Positions 25,986 through 61,889 of a stretch of 64,000 nucleotides of DNA are shown one piece after another. The notes below the pieces were generated by a model. That model saw only the letters and a list, made by a program, of their open reading frames with translations. It was not told the origin of the DNA and did no database searches. Source of the stretch: an uncultured virus (IMG/VR IMGVR_UViG_3300024518_004509) (taxonomy: Duplodnaviria > Heunggongvirae > Uroviricota > Caudoviricetes). Within the stretch, counting starts at the first letter, position 1. The number at the start of each line of letters is the position of its first letter. The stretch lies in IMG/VR virus record IMGVR_UViG_3300024518_004509. The stretch is one strand, 5' to 3'. A program made the translations under genes and the position numbers.

Positions 25986-26195
25986 TTAGTACTGTTGTTT
26001 AAAAGGGTGTCTTACCTGCTCAAAATCTTTCTCGGTCAACTCACCAACATTCAGGTAATATTGCAGGTACGATTCTATAGCTTCCTTAGATACTTTTAAA
26101 GGAGAACACCAAGGACAGTAGGCTCCTGTAGGATAACTGTCATACAACAGATTCCTCTTCAAGTTCCTATTCTTTATGGTTCTCCATGTTTTCAT
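25986..26195 (-). CDS. Hypothetical protein (CxxC)
   Basis: Start MKTWRT at 26195, just after the TACCTTTG box. Contains CPWC. Confidence 0.45.
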   Translation of the reverse strand: MKTWRTIKNRNLKRNLLYDSYPTGAYCPWCSPLKVSKEAIESYLQYYLNVGELTEKDFEQVRHPFKQQY

Positions 26196-26199
26196 ACAG

Positions 26200-26207
26200 C
26201 AAAGGTA
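26200..26207 (-). promoter_or_regulatory. -7 promoter box at the start of the leftward arm
   Basis: Minus strand TACCTTTG = TAnnTTTG. No well-spaced -33 box seen. Confidence 0.5.
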
Positions 26208-26350
26208 CGAAAAATTTTCAGAAAAAATACTATAGGGCAAAATAAAATTTTTATGCGGCTATTTGTGGGGGTGATATAGTAACACCACCCCCGTATCGAG
26301 TTTCGGTCCCGTTGGGCCACACTGTTTTATTCACATAAAAACTTAAAGAA

Positions 26351-26797
26351 ATGACACAAACAGAGATTAAAAACCGTTTGGCAACGGCTGCACAGGCCAA
26401 AGCCTTTAACAAAGATTTAGTAATTGCTAATGGAGCGAACCCAGCGTTGTGGGTTTTAGACACCGATGGTGCTCTATGGTTTAAGGCAACAGTCACCAGA
26501 ACATCTGAAGATAAAGGTGCTTATCTTAAGCCTTCGCATACTGCTCATGGTAACTTGTACACAACTGCTGATATGACAGATTTTGACTTCGTTCAAAACA
26601 TCTTCTCTCAACGTCCCGGTGAGAGTGAATCAGTAAATGTGATAGTTAAAGTTGCAAAGCAATCACCACTTGACGTGGATGAATCATTGGTTGAAGCACG
26701 CTATGCTGATAATCCAAAGGCTATCGCCAATTGGAAACAAGCTCGCGAACGCGAAGGTTCCGTTCGATTGGTAGCTATCGCTATCGAAGAAATATAG
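26351..26797 (+). CDS. First gene of the rightward (early) arm, hypothetical
   Basis: 148 aa with A-rich start context and its own terminator. Confidence 0.75.
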   Translation: MTQTEIKNRLATAAQAKAFNKDLVIANGANPALWVLDTDGALWFKATVTRTSEDKGAYLKPSHTAHGNLYTTADMTDFDFVQNIFSQRPGESESVNVIVKVAKQSPLDVDESLVEARYADNPKAIANWKQAREREGSVRLVAIAIEEI

Positions 26798-26816
26798 GCT
26801 GTTGCCTATATTTTTT
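26791..26816 (+). terminator. Intrinsic terminator
   Basis: AATATAGGC-tgtt-GCCTATATT followed by T-tract. Confidence 0.7.
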
Positions 26817-26825
26817 AAAGCTCTA

Positions 26826-27550
26826 CTAACTCACACGCCTCACAGTTCTTTCTCAAGGACTGTTTAGTGTCACTAACGACACTCTAAGTGGCTGTGAGTG
26901 TGGGTTTTAGAACCTTCCCCCAATAAAAGACAATTTAACTGTTTATTGCACTCATACACCAATAAATCAGTATTCATAGCATAAAATACTTAAACTATCT
27001 TCAATCAAAACTAAAACCTCGGGTAACGCAATAGCTAAGCATGAGTTCCCTGTTACTGTAATCCAAACAATGAGGTGGTAACATTAACAATGTCATGGTC
27101 TATCCAGTTGTAGAGAACCTGGACTAGATAGTTTAAGTTATAATATAGACTCTTGCTAAAAGGCCCGTAATCTTGCATAAAATAGCTCCGTAATGGTTGC
27201 AATGATAGCAGGTGGGTGCTGCCTTGCAAGAGTCTTGCCCTATTCTGAGGAGAGTCCTTGGAAATTAATGTTTGTGAGTGTCAATTAAACTCTCTTTGTG
27301 CAATGAAGTCCTTTAGCCTGCCACAGCTATGTTAGCGACTTCCACAAATATACTAATATAAGAAGCTCTACTTAAGGGTAACCTGACTTGATTGATATCT
27401 TGAACCAAGCAGCGTTAAAATTGAGCATACACATCTTAATATGGAATAGCCAAGGGTAGGATATTAGACCTGCGGCGCTGATGGTTGTATTGGTAGTACA
27501 ATCACGGTAATAAACGACACTAATGCCACTGACACTTGATCAAGTCAGTG
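26826..27550 (+). ncRNA. Tandem structured RNA domains (unknown function)
   Basis: ORF-free, with consecutive closing stems, e.g. 26988-27000/27126-27138 (13 bp), 27147-56/27226-35 and 27383-92/27539-48. Confidence 0.55.
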
Positions 27551-27563
27551 GTATAATACTTTA

Positions 27564-27624
27564 AGTCATCCAGAAGACTATAACAATTACACTGAAGAGG
27601 CTGGACGAAACAATATGTCTGTAA
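27564..27624 (+). ncRNA. Type I hammerhead ribozyme with loop-loop pseudoknot
   Basis: TTACA-CTGAAGA-G-GCTGGA-C-GAAA-C-AATAT-GTC-TGTAA. Full core, stem I TTACA/TGTAA, stem III ACA/TGT. Loop II CTGGA pairs with TCCAG in the upstream AGTC-ATCCAGAA-GACT hairpin. Confidence 0.82.
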
Positions 27625-27647
27625 AAATCATTTAAAAACTTAAAACA

Positions 27648-28016
27648 ATGGCAATGACTAAAAATGAAAAACAACTGAAACATGCACATCCTGTGCAAGT
27701 AGTGACTACATTCAAATCAACTGATGTGATAGTAGGTGGAACTGTATTCTTGACAGCTGAAGATTGTAGAGGTATTCTACGTCTCACTGATACTGAAATC
27801 TATCCTGATGTTGATGATATTATCATAGACAAAGAACTACCTGGTGACATCAAAGCAACACCTGAAGGACTGGAGCTTATAACTACGCAAGAACTTGGAT
27901 ATTTATACCAATGTTCTGATATTCTGGAAACTATCGCCAAAGGTATCTTACATACTTCAGGTAAAGCAACCAATGGTAAAGACTTACTTGCTAAACTCAC
28001 TCATATCCCTGAATAA
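27648..28016 (+). CDS. Hypothetical early protein
   Basis: 122 aa, starting 28 nt after the hammerhead cleavage site. Confidence 0.7.
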   Translation: MAMTKNEKQLKHAHPVQVVTTFKSTDVIVGGTVFLTAEDCRGILRLTDTEIYPDVDDIIIDKELPGDIKATPEGLELITTQELGYLYQCSDILETIAKGILHTSGKATNGKDLLAKLTHIPE

Positions 28017-28243
28017 TGATGAGTATAGAAATGTTGAAGAAGTTCAAATCACTCACCATAGCAGCCGATAAAGGTTATTATGGTGAGTATATTGAACAAC
28101 TACTATCAACTAGTTATAGAACAACTAGTCAGAAGATAGAGGAAGTTGAGAAGTTTGCTGATTCAAGGTTCGCCAGTGGTAAGAAATTTGGTAGAACTAT
28201 GGCAATAGAACAAATAGAACGTGAACTTGAAAGAATAAAGTAA
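28016..28243 (+). CDS. Hypothetical protein
   Basis: 75 aa, coupled through TAATG. Confidence 0.6.
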   Translation: MMSIEMLKKFKSLTIAADKGYYGEYIEQLLSTSYRTTSQKIEEVEKFADSRFASGKKFGRTMAIEQIERELERIK

Positions 28244-28244
28244 T

Positions 28245-28700
28245 CATTAAATATACGCGCTGGCACAAATACACAAAACCAGATGGATCAATCGGCACAC
28301 ACCTCGGACATTAAGTTACTGGGGAATAATGGGAGTTGTCGGGTATGTTATTTAACTCTTTTATCTAAGCAGAGGGCTTAACAGCCTAACGGTTTACTGT
28401 CTGTATTAGTCAGGCGTAGAAGAGTTTATAGCTATTATGAGGCGAGTTCGTCGTGCGATGCTAATATAAATGCGTTGCAAAAAAGAACCAGAATGGTAAG
28501 TGTCTAAGCAGGAGAGATCTTCAATACAGACTGAAATTAGTGCGATGTACGTGACGAGTACAATGGCCTATTACCCATAATAGCTTATTTATTACTAACA
28601 AATTATCAGTATTAACAATTTAAATCTTTTAATTATGTAGTGTACACTGAAGACATACAGGGGTGAGTGACAACAGCCACCCCTTCTGTATCTACATTAA
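28245..28700 (+). ncRNA. Second block of tandem structured RNA domains
   Basis: ORF-free. Closing stems 28354-64/28416-26, 28430-39/28576-85 and 28635-40/28692-97. Confidence 0.5.
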
Positions 28701-28728
28701 CATTTAAAATCCTTAAAAATCAAATAAA

Positions 28729-29073
28729 ATGAAACAATTTATTATTTTACTGCTTATAGCAGTTATGATGTCCTGTACATCACGCTCTGGTCAGAGATTA
28801 AAACATTTGGAAGCTGTTAAGGCTCAATTAGAACTTGAACAACCTAATTATTATGTGGTTGACAGTGTTACTGCCATCATGTATGAGTATACTCGGGATT
28901 CAACCGATATTAAATATACTCTGGTGGTTGATGATGTGGTAATGACTAAAGCATTTACCTATCATAGAGTATTTGAGATGATTGCTACATATCAGGAAGA
29001 CCATGTAAAAGAACTGACAGAACATCTGATGTTCACATACAATGACCAATACCTGATACCATTTAAATTCTAA
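28729..29073 (+). CDS. Putative lipoprotein
   Basis: MKQFIILLLIAVMMS-C lipobox-like signal. Confidence 0.6.
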   Translation: MKQFIILLLIAVMMSCTSRSGQRLKHLEAVKAQLELEQPNYYVVDSVTAIMYEYTRDSTDIKYTLVVDDVVMTKAFTYHRVFEMIATYQEDHVKELTEHLMFTYNDQYLIPFKF

Positions 29074-29079
29074 TTAGCT

Positions 29080-29286
29080 ATGATGAAAGAGTATTTATTT
29101 GTGATGGACTTTCATCGTCACACACTTAAACGTGTGGAACAGCATGAATCTCTAATTCCAGGTGGTTTCGGGGAAACCCAGAAAATCACTTATGTAGGAG
29201 GATCTGTCAGAGGCTTGGTTTACCGGGTTATCGCATTATCTTGGTCTGATGCTGTTGTATTATTTTACAACCATTTACAAGATTAA
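29080..29286 (+). CDS. Hypothetical protein
   Basis: 68 aa ORF in operon orientation. Confidence 0.5.
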   Translation: MMKEYLFVMDFHRHTLKRVEQHESLIPGGFGETQKITYVGGSVRGLVYRVIALSWSDAVVLFYNHLQD

Positions 29287-29464
29287 TAGGATACGACATC
29301 CTTGGTCTACGGACCTAAAGAGGATACGGTTACGGCCTGTGTGGGCGCCGCAGTAAATACACATACAGAGCAGGCTCTTTTCTTAAGGATAGTATAACAC
29401 TGTACCTTTGAGCATGCAAAAGGGCTGCTCTTTTTTCTTTAACTCTAAAAACTTTAACAAACAA

Positions 29465-29821
29465 ATGAAATCTGTAATAAACTTCGATATTGACTGGCGT
29501 GAGTGGGCATTTCCACTGGCAGGCAGTATCAAACGTGAAAAGAATAGTATAAGTGTCACAGAATATGAGATATTTATAGTATTATTGTTCATTCAAATGG
29601 AATGGACACTGACCTTTGACAAAAATGTAACTCGAGGTTCTTCAACCTTGGCTCTATCCTTAATTGGTGTGATTTGTATAATGGCTTCATTGGTAGTATT
29701 ACTTGCCGATGTACCTGAAGATACTGCGATCATGGCTATTGTAATATTTAAATTGCTTGGCTTTTCACTGTTCATAGCAGGTGTAATTCTATTCAGAAAA
29801 CTCTTAATGAAAAAACTATGA
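29465..29821 (+). CDS. Membrane protein
   Basis: Start MKSVIN after an A-rich leader. Two to three hydrophobic helices. Confidence 0.6.
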   Translation: MKSVINFDIDWREWAFPLAGSIKREKNSISVTEYEIFIVLLFIQMEWTLTFDKNVTRGSSTLALSLIGVICIMASLVVLLADVPEDTAIMAIVIFKLLGFSLFIAGVILFRKLLMKKL

Positions 29822-31503: not shown

Positions 31504-31857
31504 GAGTATACTTCACACATTTGTATTATGGGGATAATATCTATGTAAGTATAGATTAACATCACTCTTACTGCCCTGTAGGTATCTAACTAAGCACAGA
31601 AGGTTAAAGATTAGCTGAGTTCCAGCTTCTTACAACTGAAGTTACTGGTTCATATCTGCAGGGTTCTTATTGATAAGTGCTGAAGCCAGTATGTAATAAA
31701 ACCGGATGCGTGGGAAAAAACTACCTCTGATTAATTTCAAGTAGAGGTGATAATTACCGATAAATCAGAAAGCCGGATGCACTTATCTTTTATAAGCAGG
31801 TATAACAAAGTTAATTTAATAATCGTAGTTGATCTTTTGGTAAACTGTTATGCCTGT
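31499..31857 (+). ncRNA. Third block of tandem structured RNA domains
   Basis: Four consecutive closing stems: 31499-507/31564-72, 31574-85/31652-63, 31672-80/31779-87 and 31797-807/31846-56. Confidence 0.55.
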
Positions 31858-31878
31858 TTTAATTCTAAAACTTTAAAA

Positions 31879-57682: not shown

Positions 57683-57823
57683 ATGATAACAGAACAAGAT
57701 TTAAAAAACGCTTTTAATAGTGGTAGGTCATATTCAGGTATGCCAAATGGATTTAATGATTTTGTACAAGAAAAATGGAAATATGAAAATTTTGAAGATT
57801 ATAAAAAACACCTAAAACTGTAA
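57683..57823 (+). CDS. Array ORF, 46 aa
   Basis: MITEQDLKNAFNSGR...YKKHLKL. Bounded by junction repeats. Confidence 0.65.
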   Translation: MITEQDLKNAFNSGRSYSGMPNGFNDFVQEKWKYENFEDYKKHLKL

Positions 57824-57825
57824 TT

Positions 57826-58128
57826 ATGAGAACGTGGAGTTATTACAATAATGAATTTAAAACAGGAGTGAAAGAAAAAGCATTATTTAAGTCTTTTGAT
57901 TATCAATATACGTTTAAAGGATTAACTCTGTTAGAAATTTCAATAGCGTACAGAAGTAATTTAAGAACCAATAAAGATTATAGGGAATATGATATGGGTA
58001 AAAAAGAGATTAATTACTCATTTGATAATTTATGGCTAACACTTTTTTCTAACAAGTATTATTTCTTGTATGTAAGTTGGTCTTATTTTCATAAAGCAAT
58101 AGAATTTTTTAAACCAAAATATAAATAA
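57826..58128 (+). CDS. Array ORF, 100 aa
   Basis: Bounded by exact junction repeats. Confidence 0.65.
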   Translation: MRTWSYYNNEFKTGVKEKALFKSFDYQYTFKGLTLLEISIAYRSNLRTNKDYREYDMGKKEINYSFDNLWLTLFSNKYYFLYVSWSYFHKAIEFFKPKYK

Positions 58129-58137
58129 ACTGTAATT

Positions 58138-58278
58138 ATGGGAAACGATGTAAATATAATTGACAAAGCTATTCGGAATACTAGAAGAAAATTAAATGCA
58201 AAATGGTTTACCTATGGATTTATAATAGGAGTGATGTTTTGCGTTGCAACTATAATGATAATAACATTAATACTGTAA
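58138..58278 (+). CDS. Array ORF, 46 aa, C-terminal TM helix
   Basis: MGNDVNIIDKAIRNTRRKLNAKWFTYGFIIGVMFCVATIMIITLIL. Confidence 0.65.
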   Translation: MGNDVNIIDKAIRNTRRKLNAKWFTYGFIIGVMFCVATIMIITLIL

Positions 58279-58280
58279 TT

Positions 58281-58442
58281 ATGAAGAAAGGACAAATGTA
58301 TTTTTATTTAGGTAGAATATTTATAGCAAAAAAAATAAGTGGTAATGATGTTTTACCGACTAAATCGTGGGGTGCAGCAATGAGTTGGCATCCGATTAGA
58401 CATTGTAAAATAATAGAAGGAATTATTAACTTTAAACTGTAA
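58281..58442 (+). CDS. Array ORF, 53 aa
   Basis: MKKGQMYFYLGR...IINFKL. Bounded by junction repeats. Confidence 0.6.
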   Translation: MKKGQMYFYLGRIFIAKKISGNDVLPTKSWGAAMSWHPIRHCKIIEGIINFKL

Positions 58443-58444
58443 TT

Positions 58445-58567
58445 ATGGAAACTGCTAATAAGTGGAAAGAACGAGCAAAAAGAGATAGGAAATATAGAAA
58501 ATATTATCAGTTGAGAAATAAGGTAATTCTATTTATGGCTGATATAAAAGATAACTTAAAACTGTAA
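58445..58567 (+). CDS. Array ORF, 40 aa, basic
   Basis: METANKWKERAKRDRKYRKYYQLRNKVILFMADIKDNLKL. Confidence 0.55.
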   Translation: METANKWKERAKRDRKYRKYYQLRNKVILFMADIKDNLKL

Positions 58568-58662
58568 TATTCTTATGTGACTGTAATGTGACTAAGCGAG
58601 TAAAATAGAGAAAATTCACTCACAAAACCTATGTGATAGGGATGTGACTAAATACTGTAATT

Positions 58663-58746
58663 ATGACATATTTCCCAGAAATAGAGCAATTCACGATGTA
58701 TGAAGATTATCATACCACAACAGACGATAAAACAACAATCAAATAA
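58663..58746 (+). CDS. Array ORF, 27 aa
   Basis: MTYFPEIEQFTMYEDYHTTTDDKTTIK. Fills the interval between two exact repeats. Confidence 0.45.
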   Translation: MTYFPEIEQFTMYEDYHTTTDDKTTIK

Positions 58747-58755
58747 ACTGTAATT

Positions 58756-58881
58756 ATGAGAAAATATTTCACCTACTACAAAAAAAGAGTAACGGTAGAA
58801 TTTGCTAAAAAAAGATGTTGGCGACATATTGTATTGAAACACAGTCCTTGTAAGAAAGATTGTGGTGCAAGTATTTGTTAA
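58756..58881 (+). CDS. Array ORF, 41 aa, Cys-rich
   Basis: MRKYFTYYKKRVTVEFAKKRCWRHIVLKHSPCKKDCGASIC. Confidence 0.5.
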   Translation: MRKYFTYYKKRVTVEFAKKRCWRHIVLKHSPCKKDCGASIC

Positions 58882-58884
58882 AAA

Positions 58885-58912
58885 GTCCAGTTAATTAGTT
58901 AAAAAACTGGAC
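58885..58912. repeat. 28-bp palindromic site, copy 1
   Basis: GTCCAGTTAAT-TAGTTA-AAAAACTGGAC. Confidence 0.8.
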
Positions 58913-58941
58913 AAAAGAATAATTTTAAAACTGTAATAATC

Positions 58942-59061
58942 ATGGAAAAATCATTAAGTCCTAAACAGGCGAAAAATAGAAGATATAAAAAAGTTGGTGG
59001 TGGTGGTTGTATGGTTACAATCGTAATAGGAATTATATCAATACTATCATTAATACTGTAA
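58942..59061 (+). CDS. Array ORF, 39 aa, C-terminal TM helix
   Basis: MEKSLSPKQAKNRRYKKVGGGGCMVTIVIGIISILSLIL. Confidence 0.6.
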   Translation: MEKSLSPKQAKNRRYKKVGGGGCMVTIVIGIISILSLIL

Positions 59062-59063
59062 TT

Positions 59064-59246
59064 ATGTGGGAATATAAAACTGAATATAAAGGAGTTCACG
59101 AAGTAAATCTTTCACATATGGAAACGTATTTAAACAAAAAAGGAAAAGAGGGTTGGGAATTGGTGTATATCATATCAAAGAACTTTAGGGATAATGTACA
59201 CGAATTTGCTAACCACACTTTTATTTTTAAAAGACAATCTAAATAA
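59064..59246 (+). CDS. Array ORF, DUF4177-like protein
   Basis: MWEYK...LNKKGKEGWELV...FIFKR signature. Begins exactly at the junction ATG. Confidence 0.75.
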   Translation: MWEYKTEYKGVHEVNLSHMETYLNKKGKEGWELVYIISKNFRDNVHEFANHTFIFKRQSK

Positions 59247-59265
59247 ACTGTAAATACTAAATATT

Positions 59266-60369: not shown

Positions 60370-60395
60370 AAACCCTGTCAGCAATGGCAGGGTTT
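60370..60395. terminator. Terminator between convergent arms
   Basis: AAACCCTGTCA-gcaa-TGGCAGGGTTT. Confidence 0.7.
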
Positions 60396-60401
60396 CTCAT
60401 T

Positions 60402-61889
60402 TTATGTACATGGTGAATTAGTCCAACAACCCGGTCCAGTTCCTATGATATTCTTATAGACTGTACCTATTTCTCCGTTGGTATCCACATAGATATATTG
60501 AGTAATTGTATAAATTACATTGTTGGTAGAATCCCCGTTAGACCATAACAGTACACCTGTACCACCAGGATAATCATGAGAGACTGTCACATTTGTAAGT
60601 GATATGAAGTATTGTGAGCCGTCCCATTCCCATTTAGCTCTTGAAAGAATATTTATATTTATATCAAATATCTTGATCATTCCTGAATCATAAGCATCAA
60701 ATCCACTTGCTATAAGTGGGTATTCTATACTCTGGTCTGCAGATGATTGTCCTGTTAAGAATTCCATCATGGAAATTACATTAGGTGCATTCTCTGCTCC
60801 ATCCCATACAATCTTTGCTGAGCCACTCGTATAACTTGTGACAAGAGCTGTCATAGTTCCAAAGGTTTCAGGTGTAATGGTTTCAAACTCATCAGTATAA
60901 TGAGCCCAGACATACATTCCTGTAGGCGCTTGTACTGTAGCAGCATCATCCAACCACACACGAGCACCCACATTAAAGGTATCACCATCAGATATGAACA
61001 AAGGTGTAGGAACACCTCCATTACCTGCAAAGAGTCTTGTATCTTCAATCTCATTACATGTATTGACCATACATGGTACGTCATTTATCTGAGGTTGATG
61101 GTAAGCCTGACCAATTGGATATGCCGGATCTGGTGAGACTGGATTGTATTCAGCTTCAGTTATAAGTGTGCTGATAGTAGGAAGAACTCCATAATATGGT
61201 TCTTGAAGAGTCAGACTGTACACCACTTCAGCTCCTTGATCACCGGAAAGTCCATTCATATCTGAAGAGAAATACATCTTATTGTTAGGAAGTGGTATCC
61301 ATATTGAAGCACCCACTGCTCTATAATGTGAAGTAACTGTTTCTCCTGCTGCTATTTGAAGTTCCCATACTTCTATGGAACTGTCAGGATGTGTAAAGGT
61401 AATTGTATACTGGAAAGCATAAGGCATTGCCAAATTCAGTGTGACGCTATGTGCCCAAATGGTATATAATCCTGAATTGGGTCCTATTGCACCTTCATAT
61501 GTCCAGTCATTACCACTTGTAGCAAGAACCTTCTCAAGAGCATGGCCTGCTACTGTAGCTGTCGGGTATCCCCTGAATGCCATCATATCCCCGGGACGCT
61601 TGTGATGAGCATCTTCATTGAAACCGTAGAGCATTTCCCTGATCACAAAATATGTACACCTCAACAGGTCTAAGATGCCATTCTCAGCATCACTTAGACT
61701 GCCTGCAGGAAAAGTATTATGTAAAATCCATGTATGGTATACAGCTTTGTTTACAGAACCTTCCTTCCAGTCTGCTCTGGTACCGTGAAGTGCACAACCC
61801 TTGCCCGGAACCCCTGTATCATTAATAGGGACTCGTTTGCCGTCGTGCAAATCATTCCATACTTGGTTCTCAGCATTAGTATATGCCAT
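60402..61889 (-). CDS. Putative virion/tail-associated protein
   Basis: 495 aa, Thr/Gly/Tyr-rich, beta-like. Last gene of the lysis/tail operon. Confidence 0.5.
   Translation of the reverse strand: MAYTNAENQVWNDLHDGKRVPINDTGVPGKGCALHGTRADWKEGSVNKAVYHTWILHNTFPAGSLSDAENGILDLLRCTYFVIREMLYGFNEDAHHKRPGDMMAFRGYPTATVAGHALEKVLATSGNDWTYEGAIGPNSGLYTIWAHSVTLNLAMPYAFQYTITFTHPDSSIEVWELQIAAGETVTSHYRAVGASIWIPLPNNKMYFSSDMNGLSGDQGAEVVYSLTLQEPYYGVLPTISTLITEAEYNPVSPDPAYPIGQAYHQPQINDVPCMVNTCNEIEDTRLFAGNGGVPTPLFISDGDTFNVGARVWLDDAATVQAPTGMYVWAHYTDEFETITPETFGTMTALVTSYTSGSAKIVWDGAENAPNVISMMEFLTGQSSADQSIEYPLIASGFDAYDSGMIKIFDININILSRAKWEWDGSQYFISLTNVTVSHDYPGGTGVLLWSNGDSTNNVIYTITQYIYVDTNGEIGTVYKNIIGTGPGCWTNSPCT

Follow-up and report, generated by a model that had tools for sequence, protein, structure and literature searches.

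The early transcript of phage T7 carries RNase III processing stems, which act in cis as processing signals in its early region. Among crAss-like phages, the intergenic gaps g004-g005 and g005-g006 of phi14:2 are transcribed early, above the level of most genes, and their transcription persists late, as reported in the accessible part of 10.1101/2020.03.07.982082. Hammerhead ribozymes punctuate blocks of phage and prophage genes, according to the available text of PMC3088659, and further, unexplained structured RNAs lie near genes linked to bacterial twister and hammerhead ribozymes (the RAGATH motifs), an enrichment principle set out in the accessible portions of PMC5737381 and PMC6765202. 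Early non-coding tracts and ribozyme punctuation are already known from phages, and what is new in the locus described below is its uncatalogued folds. As for the abundant early non-coding RNAs of crAss-like phages, they have been reported yet remain unexplained. If the modules of this locus are released as separate RNAs, the small-RNA toolkit of phages would be larger and faster-changing than the catalogue of tRNAs, tmRNAs and ribozymes, and the locus gives sharp predicted ends; if they are punctuation only, it would be an ordinary example of early-transcript processing.

The DNA analysed, called the window here, is a stretch of 64,000 nucleotides that, judged by its proteins, comes from an environmental crAss-like phage: capsid, portal and terminase fall in PHROGs 11589, 6547 and 6681, and among isolates the terminase matches that of Cellulophaga phage phi14:2 best (34%). 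Late genes point left and small early genes right, away from a junction near 26200-26330. The tract under study is the gap of about 850 bases between early genes 1 and 2, in which the longest plus-strand ORF has at most 31 codons. Its surroundings are as follows.

26189..26319, no strand assigned: conserved non-coding control region at the head-to-head late/early junction, about 70% identical to relatives L004, L033, L095 and L012
26351..26797, plus strand: gene 1, 148 aa, a divergent clade-specific family (8 positional homologues aligned, 19-26% identity)
26792..26817, plus strand: terminator-like hairpin and U run where gene 1 ends (pair probability 1.0)
27648..28016, plus strand: gene 2, 122 aa, to which the ORF and PHROG/Pfam scans assign no family

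The control region, about 500 nt from the tract, is a candidate early promoter or genome-end signal, and nhmmer adds L088, L075 and L139 to its matches. In at least eight relatives it carries a C-rich motif followed by a hairpin, and on the minus strand at 26207 lies a -7 element of Bacteroidota type. Gene 1 has no Pfam or PHROG match. Its predicted model (pLDDT 67) gives weak fold matches, many of them to OB folds, the best at Z 4.3, which is below the usual chance-match level, and none at Z ≥ 5; we take this as a hint, no stronger, that the product is possibly OB-fold-like. Protein searches with genes 1 and 2 returned only a near-identical 22-kb contig, a profile search with gene 1 reached five proteins, and an Atlas search with it gave no usable match. 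The hairpin at 26792-26817, absent from the output of a consensus terminator scan, was overlooked in the sequence-only reading of this DNA, as was a promoter-like site described below. With such a hairpin closing gene 1, the tract cannot be read as a mere continuation of the first message.

How does the tract compare with the systems already described? Like the early RNAs of phi14:2, it belongs to a crAss-like phage, lies in the early arm, reads rightward and occupies a long ORF-free gap with closing stems; for a working class of "phi14:2-like early non-coding tracts", it supplies the long ORF-free early gap. It differs in that the two share no sequence relation and that the tract is known from its sequence alone. 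Moreover, the "long non-coding RNA" of the g005-g006 gap (L217 4031-4500) is a tmRNA by ARAGORN, whereas ARAGORN and Rfam found neither tRNA nor tmRNA in the window; these programs do detect such RNAs in L004/L015 and phi14:2. A three-sequence profile of the g004-g005 family (from phi14:2, L201 and G003) finds no member in the tract. It retrieves its three inputs and two other Cellulophaga phages, and its best hit in the window has an E value of only 5.2 (60370-60415); when each of five conserved g004-g005 blocks is aligned with its best match in the window, 4-10 positions differ, and none of these matches lies in the tract. With the T7 stems the tract shares a length of about one helical turn or more and an early polycistronic setting, but the stems of the tract close interiors of 30-145 nt and stand back to back without genes between them. 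As with the RAGATH motifs, folded RNAs without relatives stand next to a self-cleaving ribozyme in a phage-type gene neighbourhood; unlike them, the tract is matched by no Rfam model, RAGATH families included, the scan to an E value of 10 giving just two chance matches in 26790-27560 (E 1.3 and 6.3).

The sequence-only reading had proposed that the tract is tiled by six abutting stem-closed domains, called D1 to D6 here. Every closing arm that it named is present at its position, and the folds obtained in context are these.

26826..26908, plus strand: D1, bulged closing stem with two inner hairpins (z -3.8 alone; closing-arm probability 0.44 in context)
26935..26984, plus strand: hairpin with a short A-rich motif, absent from the sequence-only reading (pair probability 0.98)
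26988..27138, plus strand: D2, perfect 13-bp stem closing a multibranch interior that folds weakly (probability 0.97)
27147..27235, plus strand: D3, 10-bp perfect closing stem, extended rod (probability 0.98)
27243..27263, plus strand: local hairpin that takes the left arm of D4 (in the MFE fold; probability 0.37)
27296..27348, plus strand: D5, small bulged rod (z -2.0; probability 0.62)
27383..27548, plus strand: D6, closing stem mutually exclusive with hairpin 27523-27554 (in-context probability 0.0)

The word tiling is overstated. D2 and D3 are firm, D5 and D1 are intermediate (0.62 and 0.44), but D4 and D6 do not form in context. The D4 stem has six Watson-Crick pairs and one G.U pair, with an in-context probability of 0.0. 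The right arm of D6 pairs instead in the hairpin at 27523-27554 (0.98), a structure 3.6 kcal/mol better than a forced D6, which is favoured only where the RNA ends at or before 27550; inside D6 lies another strong plus-strand hairpin, at 27477-27508. What does hold is that the domains share an architecture while being unrelated in sequence, each repeat pair differing from the others. The hairpin at 26935-26984 is the sole piece of the tract with a positional echo in relatives: 16 of 17 nt are common with the equivalent position in G003 (E 0.45, not significant alone), and its A-rich motif, under a post hoc definition, comes after the first fold downstream of gene 1 in 6 of the 10 regions examined (two too short), where chance gives 0.10 each. 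A reading of 26898-26984 as a tmRNA tag was dropped, ARAGORN finding no tRNA-like domain there.

Stem density exceeds that of shuffled sequence. The tract holds three perfect long-range stems of at least 10 bp (D2 with 13 bp, D3 and D6 with 10 bp each), against 0.21 expected in one run, where none of 100 dinucleotide shuffles reached three, and 0.14 in a second, where 1 of 1000 did; coding controls carry 0.13-0.15 such stems per kb. Among 75 genome tiles of 850 nt, four hold two such stems (local hairpins counted) and none holds three. These statistics are optimistic, because the tract was picked for its stems. Folding energies are less striking: the whole region has a z of -2.5 on the plus strand and -1.5 on the minus strand (20 shuffles each). 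In 120-nt sliding windows starting from 26961 to 27381, z runs from -1.9 to +1.8, so the domain interiors are not unusually stable, and the strong windows start at 26781 (z -6.5) and at 27441 (z -5.6 on the plus strand, -1.5 on the minus strand).

The evidence on strand is weak and mixed. Within the tract, G.U pairs interrupt stems twice on the plus strand and never on the minus strand, and over all ten early regions such interruptions number 23 and 13, against 14 and 16 in shuffles; in the MFE folds of the tract, however, G.U pairs make up 32 of 264 pairs on the minus strand and 23 of 266 on the plus strand. An A-U pair stacked on a U.U mismatch, a feature noticed post hoc, opens the closing stem in 7 of 24 cases (3 of 4 in the window, 4 of 20 in the relatives and phi14:2) against 6.5% in shuffles.

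Searches for the folds elsewhere returned little. No homologue of D1-D6 was found in the non-coding DNA of 76 loci (162 kb), where the best blastn scores lie within the shuffled range, and blastn of 26200-28800 against annotated phages gave no match. Models of D2 and D3, near-single-sequence and of low power, recovered only themselves over 683 kb and 96 kb, and the one sequence found to share these two folds is the 99.9% identical L001, whose single variant at D3 (27217) turns a G.U pair of the centroid into G-C. Covariation within the tract would have to be read from homologues of D1-D6, of which these searches gave none beyond L001. The Rfam scan that had been proposed as a check recovers RAGATH-1 as its sole family and nothing for the folds themselves. 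No publication on these folds was found in a survey covering mainly the open literature, the available text of PMC7886860 and PMC8375218 adds nothing on such RNAs, and a term search of the crAss001 preprint gave no match. The idea of an undescribed phage ncRNA system therefore survives in part: the individual folds match nothing catalogued, but early non-coding tracts of crAss-like phages were already known from phi14:2.

Several known classes were considered for the folds. Resemblances to RNase P, SRP and 6S RNAs, group I introns, twister and hatchet were dropped in the face of no Rfam match. A retron ncRNA is an arm-closed RNA beside an encoded reverse transcriptase; none of the 74 window proteins falls in a reverse transcriptase family (PHROGs), the neighbours of the tract encode 148 and 122 aa, and the genome extends beyond the window. 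MITEs and invertible segments have a common terminal repeat sequence and a target-site duplication, but the repeats at the seven module ends compared differ and no duplication is evident. RNA mimics of the repeat-array kind (antitoxin or CRISPR type) consist of tandem repeated units, and among the 20 largest repeat families listed there is no tandem repeat in the tract.

The relatives give a broader view. Eight that carry gene 1 were gathered through terminase, neighbour-gene and control-region searches; the control-region pattern drew in 10 viral and 108 metagenome stretches, mostly by chance, with DNA examined for 80 of the 108 and true relatives recognized from a protein match or by inspection. 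In all 8 relatives folded, gene 1 is followed by a hairpin that ends in a U-rich tail, weak in L139. Their early non-coding segments, counted without L088 and L005 (no usable sequence), contain 8 long closing stems where 2.4 would be expected. The surplus lies in L015, L017 and L139 (3, 3 and 0 of 100 shuffles as high), while the early segments of L095, L033, L075 and L137 have no perfect 10-bp closing stem. In L139, abutting stem-closed folds stand immediately 5' of the second gene. The relatives retain the layout of gene 1, terminator-like hairpin and stem-closed non-coding tract.

Terminator and hammerhead aside, could most of the stems be pairings that arise by chance in intergenic DNA rich in A and T? 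The failure of D4 and D6 in context, the selection of the region for its stems and a whole-region z of only -2.5 all lean that way. Yet D2 and D3 still stand as firm stems where 0.14 would be expected, an excess of this kind is found in three relatives, and 850 ORF-free bases have been retained in a compact genome; chance is the least credible of the explanations, and highly improbable.

The early region of L004 encodes a tRNA and a permuted tmRNA 1.2-2.5 kb past gene 1, and in G003, whose terminase is 80% identical, a copy of the phi14:2 g004-g005 RNA lies farther along the early arm.

Some smaller observations belong here. On the minus strand of L004, the tmRNA is a permuted two-piece molecule and the tRNA has a long insert in its anticodon arm (1681-1890 and 2872-2979). 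The G003 copy of the g004-g005 family, at L226 5600-6430, has inserts of about 400 nt between conserved blocks. Just past gene 1, L075, L137, L004 and L012 share a small hairpin motif whose loop has three bases; the window lacks it there. At about 2090-2170 of L012, minus strand, a fold carries a twister-like loop motif, which is not called by Rfam.

About 800 nt downstream of the tract, a further module offers what the tract itself does not, a homologue.

28351..28429, plus strand: M1, stem-closed three-way junction outside the tract, common with L033 434-497 (minus strand)

The two copies of M1 are identical at 38 of 42 nt (E 1.5e-8), with an almost invariant core, and 5 of the 14 pairs of the closing stem are changed on both sides; 15 of 500 shuffles score as high, for a comparison of two sequences with a hand-fitted structure. 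M1 follows gene 3 in the window and precedes the second long gene in L033. Its compensatory changes and its shifted position show that stem-closed modules of the early arm can be selected RNA structures, and that they move. No third copy was found by pattern scan or model, and M1 has no Rfam match and is not a hatchet, which leaves it the best-supported unnamed RNA of the window. Adjoining it, at 28430-28585 on the plus strand, is a multibranch fold with a 10-bp perfect closing stem and no homologue.

At its 3' end the tract meets two further features.

27523..27557, plus strand: 11-bp hairpin with a 12-nt palindrome, overlapping a sigma70-type match (probability 0.98; promoter match 11/12)
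27563..27624, plus strand: RAGATH-1 pseudoknot hammerhead (Rfam RF03152, 56.2 bits, E 6e-8)

By its match to the model, 27563-27624 is a RAGATH-1 hammerhead: the match is full-length (model positions 1-77), includes the catalytic core and the 5' pseudoknot hairpin, and lies 0.1 bit below the gathering score of 56.3. The predicted cut falls after 27619, 28 nt upstream of gene 2. For comparison, 16 other viral RAGATH-1 loci were collected by pattern search, three of them from near-identical phages, with the self match and one bacterial match excluded. The ribozyme of the tract matches the full model and stands just before a small gene. It differs from these loci in the length of ORF-free sequence upstream, 780 bases before its core against 4-580 at the other loci. 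There an ORF ends 4-359 nt upstream in 15 of the 16 and 580 nt upstream in one, and an ATG follows within 170 nt in 11 of the 16; none contains a homologue of the tract. An upstream ORF so close at all but one of the loci makes gene punctuation the usual role of RAGATH-1, and the ribozyme at 27563-27624 would most simply be read in the same way. The suggestion that the hammerhead trims the 3' end of the tract holds to the extent that the ribozyme is real and its cut would end the upstream RNA; given its usual setting among small genes, it is no evidence of a dedicated trimmer.

These loci bring in the strongest rival, in which the whole tract is punctuation in cis: terminator, cleavage stems and hammerhead would decide where the early messages end, how stable they are and when they appear, much as RNase III sites do for the early region of T7, and the interiors would do nothing in trans, being either spacers or remnants of cassettes since lost. 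That reading gains from the position of RAGATH-1 between small genes, from single phage genes flanked by hammerheads in the available text of PMC3088659, and from a signal that sits in the closing stems and a few hairpins, the interiors being unconserved. It sits less well with several back-to-back stems lacking an intervening gene, more than punctuation needs, with an M1 interior better conserved than its stem, and with the trans-acting RNAs in the early region of relatives. We regard it as possible, though unlikely.

The sigma70-type match at 27529-27557 is the only strong one on the plus strand and the only plus-strand one among the four in the window, and a start from it would coincide with the 5' end of the hammerhead. 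Middle promoters of phi14:2 look sigma70-like in the accessible part of 10.1101/2020.03.07.982082. A sigma70-type promoter is nevertheless given low weight here, because the conserved leftward element of the clade looks Bacteroidota-type.

This site, with its palindrome, also bears on a reading at the level of DNA, in which the repeats would form hairpins or cruciforms that signal to the virion RNA polymerase or serve injection or replication, or would bound short invertible segments as inverted repeats of 10-13 bp. The three longest stems are perfect and hence strand-neutral, the conserved control region is close by, and Bacteroides inverts promoter segments of less than 200 bp between perfect 10-bp repeats, as described in the available text of PMC8375218. 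The repeat pairs, however, all differ in sequence, and nothing in L001 is inverted relative to the window. The 74 window proteins scanned, most of which have no PHROGs match at all, include no member of an integrase or recombinase family, and M1 and the hairpin at 27477-27508 use plus-strand G.U pairs. Such DNA elements seem to us improbable.

We put equally little weight on the proposal, carried over from the sequence-only reading, that the folds are decoys or sponges for host defence proteins. An arms race would be expected to give an early position, rapid turnover of unrelated modules and no antisense targets, and the tract indeed has no excess of such targets in the window (two 13-mer matches against 3.2 in shuffles). 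It has no repeat array of the kind seen in antitoxin or CRISPR mimics, though, and no Rfam similarity beyond the two chance matches, and no result here points to that function or to a partner for it.

The reading that we favour, with a probability of roughly 45%, is an early ncRNA cassette: its modules would each fold on their own, and cuts at the stems would release stable small RNAs to act in trans on the translation or RNA-binding machinery of the host. Its structural part, a plus-strand non-coding tract of separately closed, unrelated folds, is partly supported, as it fits the stem excess, the layout of the relatives and the early RNAs of phi14:2. The early-region RNAs of L004 and G003, the compensatory changes of M1, the surplus of plus-strand G.U interruptions over the ten early regions and the lack of antisense targets in the window also count for the cassette; the missing homologues of D1-D6, the four relatives with no perfect 10-bp closing stem, the ordinary stability of the interiors, the failure of D4 and D6 in context and the small strand bias of the tract count against it. 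For transcription, processing and function we infer the following course. By analogy with phi14:2, the tract would be transcribed rightward early in infection, most likely by a virion RNA polymerase, either by read-through of the gene 1 terminator or from a start just 3' of it. With about one helical turn of closing stem, each module would fold on its own, and the stems would serve as processing handles for an RNase III-like or RNase E-like nuclease of the host. Cleavage would leave stable small RNAs of 50-165 nt, and the hammerhead would separate the tract from the message of gene 2. Modules would be gained and lost quickly between phages, at a place where relatives carry a tRNA, a tmRNA or a phi14:2-type RNA; such turnover at such a site makes action in trans on the host machinery during takeover their most likely job.

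A bolder version of the cassette is rather doubtful, if a shade less so than decoys or DNA elements. Small trans-acting RNAs would plug into the earliest-expressed DNA of crAss-like phages, each on a one-turn stem, often opening on a U.U mismatch, and would be cut by a common processing rule. The OB-fold-like gene 1 protein might bind them, and they would be swapped under host pressure as anti-defence proteins are, with D6 and its competing hairpin forming a switch ahead of the hammerhead.

Elsewhere in the window, two more ORF-poor early gaps, at 29286-29466 and 31504-31870, are G+C-rich and possibly pseudoknotted; they were searched by blastn only. Farther along, on the plus strand at 57815-59260, a short motif occurs ten times, mostly directly 5' of the start codons of small genes, which suggests a cassette-like gene array.
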